Positions 14,440 to 17,244 of a stretch of 64,000 nt of DNA are shown in pieces. The notes under the pieces are model-generated. The model searched no databases and was not told where the DNA came from. It saw only the letters and a list, made by a program, of their open reading frames with translations. Made by a program: the position numbers and the translations under genes. Source of the stretch: a virus. The DNA lies in IMG/VR virus record IMGVR_UViG_3300023179_000053, positions 1-64,000 of that record; one strand, written 5' to 3'. Within the stretch, counting starts at the first letter, position 1. Each line of letters begins with the position of its first letter.

Positions 14440-14840
14440 AAAAGCCATTACATAAACATATTCTTATAAGAGGCTACTGCAACAACCCGCCAAAAGATGG
14501 TCAGATTGTATATTACTGGTTAAAAGAATTTGTTGAAAAAATTGGAATGAAAATTATCCGTGGTCCATTCTCAGCCTATATTGATGCAGAAGGCAATCGT
14601 GGAATGACAGCAACAGTAATGATTGAAACATCGCATATTGCATTTCATGTCTGGGATGAATCAGATCCATCACTTGTTCAATTTGATTTATACACATGTT
14701 CAGAATTAAATACATCTGTTGTATTACAAGAAATCGAGAAATTTTTTAATATGACACAATATGAATATCTTCTTTACGATAGAGAATCTGGGTTTAAACT
14801 AATTGATGGTGGGAGAAAGATCATTGATGACAAAAGCTAA
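14436..14840 (+). CDS. speD: S-adenosylmethionine decarboxylase proenzyme-like
   Basis: G.TA.VMIETSHIAFH.W...FDLYTC; ETSH in place of the canonical ESH self-cleavage site. Confidence 0.75.
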   Translation: MKKPLHKHILIRGYCNNPPKDGQIVYYWLKEFVEKIGMKIIRGPFSAYIDAEGNRGMTATVMIETSHIAFHVWDESDPSLVQFDLYTCSELNTSVVLQEIEKFFNMTQYEYLLYDRESGFKLIDGGRKIIDDKS

Positions 14841-15300
14841 AACTCCACATATTGATCCTTGGATTAATTCGTATGTTCAAATCATCAGAAGAAAAATGAA
14901 TTTAGCGGAATGGAAAATTGCTTTATATCGTAAACCATGTGCAAATGACACTCTTGGTGAATGCGATATAACTTATGGACAGCATCACGCAGTCATTTCA
15001 TTGCATAAAGATTACAAAAAAGAAAAACCGGAAAATCTAAGAAATACAATTGTACATGAATTGCTACATTGTTATTTTTCCCCAATCACAGAAGCTGCAA
15101 TGCAAGCACTGGAGCCTTTTGAGGAAGATGTTCATGGTCGAAAGATTATTCAATCCACTATTAACTCAATAGAATATCAAACAGAAAGGGTTATAGATCG
15201 GCTTTCTTATATTATTGCACCAACAATGCCATTGCCAAAAATACCCAATAAGAAAAAAGAGAAAAAGAAAAAAGTTGTAAAAAAAAATAAGCCCGATTAG
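14827..15300 (+). CDS. Putative zinc metallopeptidase-like protein (HEXXH)
   Basis: TIVHELLH; ATG start MTKAK at 14827. Confidence 0.6.
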   Translation: MTKAKTPHIDPWINSYVQIIRRKMNLAEWKIALYRKPCANDTLGECDITYGQHHAVISLHKDYKKEKPENLRNTIVHELLHCYFSPITEAAMQALEPFEEDVHGRKIIQSTINSIEYQTERVIDRLSYIIAPTMPLPKIPNKKKEKKKKVVKKNKPD

Positions 15301-15327
15301 CTCAGTGGTAGAGCACCTCACTTTTAA
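15291..15327 (+). pseudogene. 5' half of an interrupted tRNA (Thr-UGU or Lys-UUU)
   Basis: GCCCGAT-TA-GCTCAGTGGTAGAGC-A-CCTCA-CTT: acceptor 5' strand, D arm and anticodon 5' strand; pairs with 15848-15885. Confidence 0.85.
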
Positions 15328-15350
15328 ACAATGGTATGCTATAATGGATA

Positions 15351-15755
15351 ATGCCAAAATATCAAAACATGACTTGTATTGTGTGCTCTACTACTAAGTT
15401 ACAAAGCGTAGGTCATAAAAAAGGGACAAATCAATTTTGTTCTAATAAATGCCAACAAATAAAACAAATGATTGACTCCGTTAAAAACGGAACTGCTAGC
15501 TCTAGAACATTAAAAAGATATTTAATCTATACATTTAAAAATATTTGTTATAGATGTAAAAATAAAGAGTGGAATGGTTTATCAATACCGCTTGAGATTG
15601 AACACATTGATGGTAATTCATCAAATAATAATTTAAAAAATTTAATTCTTCTATGCCCAAATTGTCATGCTCAAACACCAACATATAAGGGGGCGAATCG
15701 TGGGAATGGTAGGCATTCAAGAAGAATTCGCTATGCTGAAGGAAAAAGTTATTAA
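15351..15755 (+). CDS. HNH homing endonuclease
   Basis: CxxC and FCSNKC zinc finger; CYRC..LEIEHIDGNSSNN...NLILLCPNCH. Confidence 0.9.
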   Translation: MPKYQNMTCIVCSTTKLQSVGHKKGTNQFCSNKCQQIKQMIDSVKNGTASSRTLKRYLIYTFKNICYRCKNKEWNGLSIPLEIEHIDGNSSNNNLKNLILLCPNCHAQTPTYKGANRGNGRHSRRIRYAEGKSY

Positions 15756-15760
15756 TAAAT

Positions 15761-15833
15761 GCCGTTGAAGCATATTTGGCTATGCACCCGACTTGTAATC
15801 GGGAGATAGTGAGTTCGAATCTCACCAGCGGCT
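15761..15833 (+). tRNA. trnT: tRNA-Thr(UGU)
   Basis: Acceptor GCCGTTG/CAGCGGC; anticodon arm CCCGA-CTTGTAA-TCGGG; T arm GTGAG-TTCGAAT-CTCAC. Confidence 0.9.
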
Positions 15834-15847
15834 CTAAATAGTTGATA

Positions 15848-15885
15848 TAATGAGGTGGTCGCAGGTTCAAGTCCTGCATCGGGCT
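15848..15885 (+). pseudogene. 3' half of the interrupted tRNA
   Basis: TAA-TGAGG-TGGTC-GCAGG-TTCAAGT-CCTGC-ATCGGGC-T is complementary to 15291-15320. Confidence 0.85.
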
Positions 15886-15898
15886 CAAAGAGGTCTAT

Positions 15899-16498
15899 AT
15901 GTTAATGCCAGAAAAAATGAAATCTCATATTAATAAAATTTTTAATGGAGAATATAATGTTCCATTTTATCCAAATGATCCATTAATTATTGTTGATATT
16001 GGAGCAAATGTTGGTGGTTTTATCAGATGGGCGGCTTCAAGATGGGCTGGAAGTACATTTTATGGATTTGAGCCAGTTAAAAGTAATTTTGATATTTTGG
16101 AAAAAAATATTTTAGACATACCTAATGTAAGTTTATATAATGTAGCTGTGGGTTCTTCAGAGCGAACACAAAAAATATTTTATGGCAAAAATAATGAAGG
16201 AGAAGCAAGTTTATTTTTTGGCAAAGAACAGGTAAATGATGGTGAAAATGTAACTATTATTAGCGCAAAGCAAATTCCAAATTGTCATATTTTAAAAATT
16301 GATACCGAAGGTTCAGAAATTGAAATTATAGAAAATTTAATTGTTGAACCATTAGTGTATTTAATTGAATATCATTCAGAAAGTAATAGATTAAGAATTG
16401 ATGAATTATTAAAAAATCAATATTCCCTTGTTGGGTCAAAATCAGAAACATTTAATTATGGTATTGTAAAGTATGCCAAAACAAGGTTGCTAAAATAA
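15899..16498 (+). CDS. FkbM-family methyltransferase
   Basis: VDIGANVG, GFEP, LKIDTEGSE, IEYH. Confidence 0.88.
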   Translation: MLMPEKMKSHINKIFNGEYNVPFYPNDPLIIVDIGANVGGFIRWAASRWAGSTFYGFEPVKSNFDILEKNILDIPNVSLYNVAVGSSERTQKIFYGKNNEGEASLFFGKEQVNDGENVTIISAKQIPNCHILKIDTEGSEIEIIENLIVEPLVYLIEYHSESNRLRIDELLKNQYSLVGSKSETFNYGIVKYAKTRLLK

Positions 16499-16504
16499 AA
16501 TCTA

Positions 16505-16577
16505 TCCCAGATAGCTCAGTTGGCAGAGCGTCGGACTGTTAATCCGTTGGTCGCAGGTTCAAACCCTGCTCTGGGAG
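16505..16577 (+). tRNA. trnN: tRNA-Asn(GUU)
   Basis: TCCCAGA/TCTGGGA acceptor; CGGA-CTGTTAA-TCCG anticodon arm; GGTTCAAA T loop. Confidence 0.93.
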
Positions 16578-16599
16578 CAAAGGGTGGTATAATAACCAT

Positions 16600-17244
16600 A
16601 TGCCTGAGCTGAATGCTTCAATCCCGCCTATTGAATGCTATGTGCGTGGGAACTTTCTAAGAAATCAACAAGACAGTCACAATCTCAAGTTCCCGTGCGT
16701 AATCTTCGGTGTAGCTTCAATCCCCGACAGAGCGCCCGTATTTCATTTTCTAATGGAAGATGGCGGGGTTTGGTGGAGAGCACCTATAAATGCGTTCTGC
16801 GCCCATCCAGACGCTCCAGAGGTAGATTTAAAAGACTTGGTGATGTGGAACAGCTTTTCGTCATATATCACCGTTACGGTCTTTGAGCACATGCGGGGTA
16901 TGGCAATGACATATATTGATCGTCATAAAAATAAAATTGACGGTAAATATATGTTTACCCTTGATTGGCATAGTCCTGATATTAATACAATCAATACGAA
17001 TTATTCCACAAATCCGGGTCAACACAAATGCGGTCATGTAATACAGAGAAAAGATGGGAATTATGCAATCCAACCAAACAACCGGGTTAGATTATGGGAT
17101 CCCTCATACACCACCAAGAAGGGAGAAAACTTAATAAACCGGTTAATTAATCAAACATTATGGGATGTTGAAGATGGGGATAAATGGATCACCTCAGATG
17201 ATGACAGATATGATTATGAAGTGGTGAATAATGATAATAATTAA
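16600..17244 (+). CDS. Conserved phage hypothetical protein
   Basis: 214-aa ORF; TGGTATAAT 6 nt before ATG. Confidence 0.7.
   Translation: MPELNASIPPIECYVRGNFLRNQQDSHNLKFPCVIFGVASIPDRAPVFHFLMEDGGVWWRAPINAFCAHPDAPEVDLKDLVMWNSFSSYITVTVFEHMRGMAMTYIDRHKNKIDGKYMFTLDWHSPDINTINTNYSTNPGQHKCGHVIQRKDGNYAIQPNNRVRLWDPSYTTKKGENLINRLINQTLWDVEDGDKWITSDDDRYDYEVVNNDNN

Follow-up and report, generated by a model that had tools for sequence, protein, structure and literature searches.

The question raised by the locus described here is how a phage transfer RNA (tRNA) gene came to be split at its anticodon by an insert that itself holds an HNH endonuclease gene and a complete second tRNA gene. The locus lies in the first 64,000 nucleotides (nt) of the IMG/VR virus record IMGVR_UViG_3300023179_000053; this whole stretch is referred to here as the window. 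Such an insert might be an intron, a pair of passengers that landed in the gene by accident, or a mobile element that breaks a tRNA gene and supplies another in its place. Our analyses favored the last of these, and we consider it likely that a mobile cassette with a homing endonuclease has lodged inside the gene that it targets, an arrangement that can be described as "cut and replace".

The broken gene and its intact alleles

ARAGORN analysis with introns allowed identified a single tRNA at 15291-15886 with a 523-nt insert, and analysis without the intron option made one call only, the inner tRNA-Thr(UGU) at 15761-15834. The outer tRNA had acceptor (GCCCGAT/ATCGGGC), D (GCTC/GAGC), anticodon (CCTCA/TGAGG) and T (GCAGG/CCTGC) stems. 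The original prediction for this DNA had stated that the two halves rejoin into a well-formed cloverleaf, and this was borne out both by ARAGORN and by the identity of the halves to unbroken genes in other phages, an agreement far greater than chance would give.

Those unbroken genes were found by two routes. A pattern derived from the 5' half retrieved 67 stretches of phage contigs, and two of these (loci L014 and L020) contained an unbroken tRNA gene identical to both window halves, with the anticodon loop CTTGTAA of tRNA-Thr(UGU). A metagenome scan with the 3' half returned three loci only (L151-153), all of them intact Thr(UGU) alleles. The original prediction had proposed reading the anticodon of the uninterrupted allele in related phages and had favored Thr(UGU) for the split gene; all five intact alleles gave that answer. 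As the unbroken alleles in relatives all carry the UGU anticodon, the resident gene was originally an ordinary tRNA-Thr(UGU) gene.

Comparison with the intact allele also defined the junctions, as the window matches that allele up to U34 (15323) and resumes at U36 (15848). The insert occupies 15324-15847 between U34 and U36, in place of G35. It had been described originally as about 520 base pairs (bp) holding an HNH gene and an intact, divergent tRNA-Thr(UGU), a description that stood and could be refined to 524 nt replacing G35. Because G35 is missing, a rejoined product could not restore tRNA-Thr, and the junction sequences thus indicated that the old halves are dead remnants. The features of the locus are listed below, where L071 is a second locus that carries the same cassette.

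15291-15323, plus strand: 5' half of the resident tRNA-Thr(UGU), 33 nt (positions 1-34, ending at U34); 33/33 nt identical to the intact alleles of L020 and L014, and an ARAGORN cloverleaf with the 3' half
15324-15350, plus strand: cassette leader, 27 nt, with TGCTATAAT at 15337-15345; 0 differences from L071 by sequence comparison
15351-15755, plus strand: predicted HNH (His-Me finger) endonuclease gene, 134 residues; PHROG 10822, E 2e-23
15756-15760: spacer of 5 nt between the HNH open reading frame (ORF) and the inner tRNA
15761-15833, plus strand: replacement tRNA-Thr(UGU), complete; ARAGORN, and Rfam tRNA at 60.7 bits
15834-15847, plus strand: cassette tail, 14 nt, identical in L071; contributes TGATA to the junction box
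15843-15851, plus strand: TGATATAAT, an extended -10-like box across the right junction, made of cassette TGATA and tRNA TAAT
15848-15885, plus strand: 3' half of the resident tRNA-Thr(UGU) (positions 36-73), without G35; 15848-15886 is identical at 39/39 nt to L014, and also to L020 and L151-153

Spread of the cassette and the HNH family

The locus L014, which has the intact allele, is syntenic with the window in having a SprT-like gene, tRNA-Leu, tRNA-Thr, tRNA-Asn, tRNA-Ile and then a homologue of the window ORF at 16600 (ORF 16600). The same cassette with the same junctions was present in L071, within a context of the L014 type (tRNA-Leu upstream, tRNA-Asn and tRNA-Ile directly downstream). 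Across the 596 bp of split tRNA and cassette the window and L071 were 98.2% identical, versus 69-77% for the genes to the left and 88% for ORF 16600. The immediate neighbors also differed, being a Leu' tRNA upstream and tRNA-Asn downstream in L071 and a SprT-like ORF and an FkbM gene in the window.

Filled sites in both contexts were also identified in Logan contigs of four further studies of lake and subsurface metagenomes (runs X2, X3, X4 and X9). The filled site in X3 record 9 extends over 787 nt with 3 differences and continues into the FkbM gene like the window, as does that in X4 record 17 (621 nt, 1 difference). In X9 record 22 the tRNA-Asn directly follows the 3' half, as in L071, and X2 record 2 has the filled site with additional sequence 5' of the 5' half. 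As is characteristic of free-standing homing endonuclease genes, the element was both present and absent at the same locus (empty and intact in L014) and was more similar than its flanks. Together, these comparisons indicated that the cassette has spread horizontally and recently, and that it is much younger than the DNA around it.

The differences between the window and L071 were unevenly distributed. The HNH ORF had 7 differences, 6 synonymous and 1 non-synonymous, and the spare tRNA, leader, spacer and tail together had none in 119 nt (0/73 for the spare tRNA, with a synonymous divergence of about 6% in the neighboring ORF). From the ratio of synonymous to non-synonymous changes and the unchanged spare tRNA, the HNH gene is under purifying selection and the spare tRNA under selection. 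The outer halves differed at 4/71 nt, about the synonymous rate, and two of the three 5'-half variants were also polymorphic in the intact alleles of other phages. This pattern indicated that the outer halves are not under selection, or else that they derive from different recipient alleles.

The protein encoded by the cassette combines a CxxC...CxxxC zinc ribbon at the N terminus with a zinc-bound H85/N97/H106 core, and in an alignment of 26 relatives C66, C69, H85, N97, C102 and C105 were invariant and H106 nearly so. It belongs by sequence match to PHROG 10822, annotated "HNH endonuclease", and its Pfam scores were just below the cut-offs (HNH_3, 22.1 versus 24.8 bits; HNH, 19.1 versus 21.4; HNH_2, 18.1 versus 21). 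An AlphaFold model (predicted local distance difference test score, 86) had the HNH domains of Cap5, McrA and PacI as its top Foldseek rows at weak E-values of 0.04-0.14, with no structural match at E 0.001 or better, and a sequence search of the PDB identified McrA alone, weakly (E 0.09). These data indicated that the 134-residue protein is an HNH/His-Me finger endonuclease; the HNH gene expected from the original prediction was thus supported by the PHROG match and by the invariant H-N-H core. By tblastn, residues 10-126 (87% of the protein) were 37% identical (E 2e-6) to an ORF that its depositor annotated as "H-N-H endonuclease F-TflIV" (hegA) in the T5-like Salmonella phage EH7, where it is located 108 nt after a tRNA-Ser.

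A search of IMG/VR identified 394 relatives of the HNH protein, and we examined 82 loci, comprising the best 80, the window and L001. A same-strand tRNA, mostly Thr(UGU), Ile(GAU) or Leu(UAA), was found no more than 40 nt after the HNH stop codon in 38 of the 82, and 37 of the 82 had a same-strand tRNA within 120 nt upstream of the HNH gene. A maximum-likelihood tree separated a Leu clade from a Thr/Ile clade with 100/96 support and an Ile(GAU) subclade, and isotype labels were clustered on it, requiring 27 changes versus 40.2 in shuffles (0 of 200 shuffles were as low). The HNH family is therefore linked to tRNA genes, with clades that correspond to tRNA isotype. The Leu and Thr/Ile clades carry different N-terminal domains.

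Several members of the Leu clade lie in tRNA-Leu(UAA) genes interrupted at U34|A35 by inserts of 671-906 nt that contain an HNH ORF and a group I core, namely L138:2171-3163 (plus strand) and L137:2094-2860, L142:2094-2860 and L134:2038-2793 (minus strand); in L137, L142 and L134 the HNH ORF is antisense to the group I intron. Rfam searches detected the cores in L138 (35.5 bits, E 1e-5), L134 (E 0.12) and L137 (E 1), with scores of 35.5, 21.8 and 18.8 bits that are below the gathering score for Intron_gpI. All three matches fell within the insert and on the same strand as the tRNA that it interrupts, with the HNH gene within a cleanly reconstituting tRNA-Leu(UAA).

Independent cases of the arrangement in the window were also identified. 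In L001 the resident tRNA-Leu(UAA) ends after U33 and is followed by a TATAAT box, a 156-residue Leu-clade HNH protein gene and a new, divergent tRNA-Leu(UAA); of the old gene, the 3' half has been deleted. A replacement-type tRNA-Leu(UAA) like that of L001 was found at L071:2339-2440 with a short piece (GAGAGCA) left from the 3' end of the old gene, but no HNH gene; at this site the spare tRNA has apparently outlived its nuclease. L091 has a 5' half broken after U34, an HNH gene whose product is 44% identical to that of the window, a whole tRNA-Thr(UGU) and a decayed 3' half, the remnants being Thr-like. In L115 and L098 an inverted unit of tRNA-Thr and HNH gene lies within a minus-strand tRNA, and a scan with hidden Markov models revealed orphan tRNA halves beside a nuclease gene in further loci. 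The selfish element envisaged in the original prediction thus gained support from the syntenic empty and filled sites, from the 98% identity of the cassette versus 69-88% for the flanks, from the purifying selection on the HNH gene and from the parallel case of Leu(UAA) in L001.

Proposed mechanism and alternative explanations

Based on these findings, we propose that the HNH enzyme would cut or nick the unbroken, resident-type tRNA-Thr gene of co-infecting relatives near the anticodon (position 34/35), and that the break would be repaired from the cassette-bearing genome, with the tRNA halves and flanks as homology, so that the cassette is copied in. A genome with the insert would be immune, as its site is split and its spare tRNA has a different sequence. 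The spare tRNA would preserve decoding capacity, thereby playing the role that the self-splicing intron has for the intron-borne relatives of the nuclease, and the box at the right junction, TGATATAAT, may restore transcription into the downstream genes. Cutting near position 34/35, copying of the cassette by repair and escape of the spare tRNA from cutting are steps we infer by analogy with SegB and with intron-borne homing enzymes.

Several points weigh against this proposal. The tRNA halves by themselves, at 33 and 38 nt, would offer short homology for recombinational repair. In an alignment the anticodon loops of the resident and spare tRNAs are identical and their anticodon stems differ at 2/5 pairs, and immunity is not obvious at the insertion point; since the loop and most of the stem are common to both, any immunity would have to come from the flanking arms or from the split site itself. 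A stem-exact pattern search for a donor of the spare tRNA in its native context matched only the contig of L071. The link between clades and isotypes could be due to co-inheritance with a neighboring tRNA, as related rows share labels, and it is a clustering rather than a measure of target specificity. After that of L071, the nearest HNH relative is in L072 (63% identity), where the tRNA-Thr is on the opposite strand, and the two contexts of the cassette could stem from rearrangement following one insertion.

That the HNH gene and the spare tRNA are instead passengers that arrived by illegitimate recombination, with the real target elsewhere (a generic tRNA motif such as the T-loop, or a non-tRNA site) and the split accidental, appears unlikely to us. 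This explanation would fit with SegB, which recognizes the conserved T-psi-C motif and not one isotype (PMC2330249), with the whole anticodon loop being common to the resident and spare tRNAs, and with the many HNH family members that are beside tRNAs and not within them. It is at odds with independent cassettes having broken their genes at the same place, at U34|G35 in the window and L091 and at U33|U34 in L001, with the introns of tRNA-Leu(UAA) at U34|A35. An accidental split would also leave unexplained why the anticodon of the spare tRNA is that of the broken gene in the window and in L001, why the remnants in L091 are Thr-like, and why the HNH clades track isotype.

A further explanation is that the insert is an intron, of group I or of a novel type, whose removal from the transcript still yields the outer tRNA. 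In its favor, group I introns of bacterial tRNAs classically interrupt the anticodon loop, where this insert also lies; some relatives in the HNH family are housed in group I introns of tRNA-Leu(UAA); and a formally well-shaped tRNA results when the halves are joined at the TAA repeat. However, the covariance search for a group I core that the original prediction had recommended gave no Intron_gpI match in 14800-17000 at E up to 10, consistent with its non-intron reading, whereas L138, L134 and L137 were positive; that cores in these related loci are recovered by the same kind of search gives the negative its weight. Only 46 nt of the insert are outside the ORF and the tRNA. Removal of the insert would yield either a Thr-type body with the anticodon UUU or a loop of six bases, neither being a functional tRNA-Thr, and the absence of G35 argues against any splicing, including that of the bulge-helix-bulge type. 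A minimum-free-energy fold of 15291-15886 had no helix pairing the two junctions, although no formal bulge-helix-bulge search was made. Moreover, divergence from L071 is close to the synonymous rate in the outer halves and nil in the inner tRNA. These data indicated that the insert is not an intron, and we regard splicing as very improbable. Comparably improbable, in our view, is that the outer gene was a tRNA-Lys(UUU), in which case the cassette would have altered the tRNA repertoire instead of making a like-for-like replacement. The 5' junction does read CTTTTAA, a full Lys(UUU) loop, and a contig from run X9 suggests that tRNA-Lys genes with this anticodon arm may exist. However, it is the TAA at both junctions that completes the seven-base CTTTTAA loop and leads ARAGORN to read Lys(UUU), and the Lys alternative put forward in the original prediction, joining at the TAA repeat, proved to be an artifact of the junction, G35 having been lost at insertion. 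The rejoined Lys(UUU) form, searched for exactly, had no match in IMG/VR, five contigs contain a Thr(UGU) gene identical to both halves, and the outer tRNA body has G1-C72 and C2-G71, which under the threonyl identity rules of Escherichia coli are of the threonyl-tRNA synthetase type.

The X9 contig, from a subsurface metagenome, follows the window as far as CTTTTAA (15327), where it passes directly to TGAGGTGGTC and has another T arm. This is probably an intact tRNA-Lys(UUU) gene, unrelated to the split one but with the same anticodon arm.

Known systems, spare tRNAs and genomic context

Homing endonuclease genes persist within introns or inteins, or adjoining their target. The cut-and-replace cassette would represent another route, with the nuclease gene inside its target and the damage paid for by a linked spare copy, a cost that can be borne only because tRNA genes are so small. 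The present case is unusually complete in having an empty site, a filled site, an exact junction, a cassette younger than its flanks and intron-borne cousins. Mobile group I introns occupy the anticodon loops of bacterial tRNA genes, such as that of the cyanobacterial tRNA-Leu(UAA) type. As in those introns, insertion in the window was after position 34 and the insert splits the homing site, and relatives of the HNH protein sit in such introns; the window differs in having no detectable ribozyme, a second gene copy in place of splicing, and loss of the interrupted gene. As the same HNH family has both group I introns (tRNA-Leu(UAA)) and spare-tRNA cassettes (Thr, Leu), one may derive from the other.

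Nuclease genes in phage tRNA clusters have been documented previously, including SegB, T5 F-Tfl and those of mycobacteriophage arrays (PMC2330249, PMC13096335, PMC6409571, PMC5966550). SegB of T4/T6 is a free-standing GIY-YIG homing endonuclease in a tRNA gene cluster which cuts the tRNA genes of relatives without it, such that nearly all progeny inherit it and its neighboring tRNA genes and the tRNA region of the recipient is replaced; SegB homologues are statistically associated with tRNAs (PMC2330249, PMC13096335). The window cassette likewise has a nuclease gene embedded among phage tRNA genes. In contrast to SegB, a GIY-YIG enzyme with a generic T-psi-C motif that is located between tRNA genes, the cassette has an HNH gene inside its target at the anticodon, keeps both halves, brings exactly one isoacceptor spare and belongs to a family whose clades follow isotype. 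The F-TflI/II/IV enzymes of T5 are described as HNH endonucleases from its tRNA gene region (Akulenko et al. 2004, cited by PMC2330249). By the annotated EH7 ORF, the window HNH protein is of this same family (hegA type) and shares its location in a phage tRNA region, whereas the annotation of the EH7 locus includes neither a split target tRNA nor a paired spare, no look for remnants having been made there. Our literature search found the HNH-tRNA association, SegB and F-Tfl, and no description of a nuclease and spare-tRNA unit nested in a target tRNA gene.

Synthetic "cleave and rescue" and "home and rescue" drives, engineered with Cas9 in insects, use a nuclease to destroy the wild-type allele and a linked, recoded, uncuttable rescue. 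The logic matches that proposed here, with the differences that the window element is natural, protein-guided and phage-borne, and any need for its rescue would depend on the value of tRNA-Thr to the phage. We advance only tentatively, as a possibility somewhat short of an even chance, that this HNH lineage is a natural "home-and-rescue" drive which carries a complete, recoded 73-nt copy of its target, a third solution beside the self-splicing intron and the intein. If the biochemistry holds, engineered rescue drives would have a natural counterpart in this locus, which would account for part of the rapid turnover of phage tRNA sets, and would point to a family of small nucleases with tRNA-isotype-specific DNA sites.

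In the whole 93.8-kb genome ARAGORN identified the spare tRNA as the only intact tRNA-Thr. It has G1-C72, C2-G71 and U73, together with an unusual A8 and a GCAT/ATGC D stem. We speculate that swapping in such oddly built tRNAs (A8, altered D arm) may renew phage tRNA alleles against tRNA-cutting host defenses. The A8 and GCAT/ATGC D stem are common to the spare tRNAs of the window, L106, L107 and L116. In L074, L076, L081, L089, L094, L101 and L108, the HNH-adjacent tRNA-Thr(UGU) genes have a variable region enlarged by a hairpin of 10-15 nt, an uncommon feature in tRNA-Thr.

The extended -10 sequence noted originally in the insert is present as TGCTATAAT (15337-15345). This box, extended -10-like by sequence, ends 5 nt upstream of the HNH ATG, and the Leu cassette of L001 has the same TATAAT-5 nt-ATG spacing. 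Ahead of ORF 16600 in the window, and ahead of its L014 homologue, are boxes similar to TGATATAAT. A promoter scan did not list the two TGNTATAAT boxes, which are without a -35 element, and TGNTATAAT occurs 8 times on the plus strand of the genome versus about 6 expected from base composition by our own estimate. With a count near expectation and no -35 element, the promoter reading is unproven. In several genes a TATAAT with an upstream TG stops 5-6 nt short of the ATG, and the interval has no Shine-Dalgarno sequence (window 15340-15353 and 16588-16602; L001:4531-4545; L014 at approximately 430-410, minus strand), a spacing that hints at leaderless messenger RNAs in this phage group.

The source genome (36% G+C) is that of a tailed phage and encodes a portal, a head protease, a terminase, a large DNA polymerase (PHROG 405) and a ribonucleotide reductase. 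The nearest public sequences are from lake and other freshwater metagenomes, and the phage is uncultured and known from lake metagenomes alone. A DNA-level search of GenBank phages identified no close relative, matches being confined to the tRNA-Asn and short HNH stretches, and no RNA run was listed among the public runs matching the locus.

A search for repeats, together with the fold, revealed no inverted repeat between the cassette ends (15324-15350 and 15834-15847). A 19-nt inverted repeat with 84% complementarity was present between 15298-15316, in the D arm of the dead 5' half, and 15383-15401, in HNH codons 11-17. As two of the three changes in the 5' half of L071 (15306 and 15309) are inside its left arm, the repeat is probably chance or a relic.

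The SprT-like ORF (14803-15300) has its stop codon, TAG at 15298-15300, inside the dead 5' half. In relatives a tRNA-Leu lies between the SprT-like gene and the tRNA-Thr, and the window has none there; the whole Leu site has therefore been lost from the window. For annotation, loci of this kind have the difficulty that standard tRNA finders do not see the tRNA halves, and the split gene of the window is miscalled as a tRNA-Lys by intron-tolerant finders.

A different kind of interruption was observed in L017 (minus strand, approximately 2100-2252) and L063:1455-1602, where a tRNA-Thr(UGU) has a 73-78-nt insert exactly between U34 and G35. These inserts fold into three hairpins with compensatory changes between the two loci (for example, GGAAGG/CCTTCC versus GGAGAGG/CCTCTCC), lack an ORF and belong to no Rfam family. 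A further tRNA-Thr(UGU), which is intact, lies 8 nt after the interrupted one in L063.

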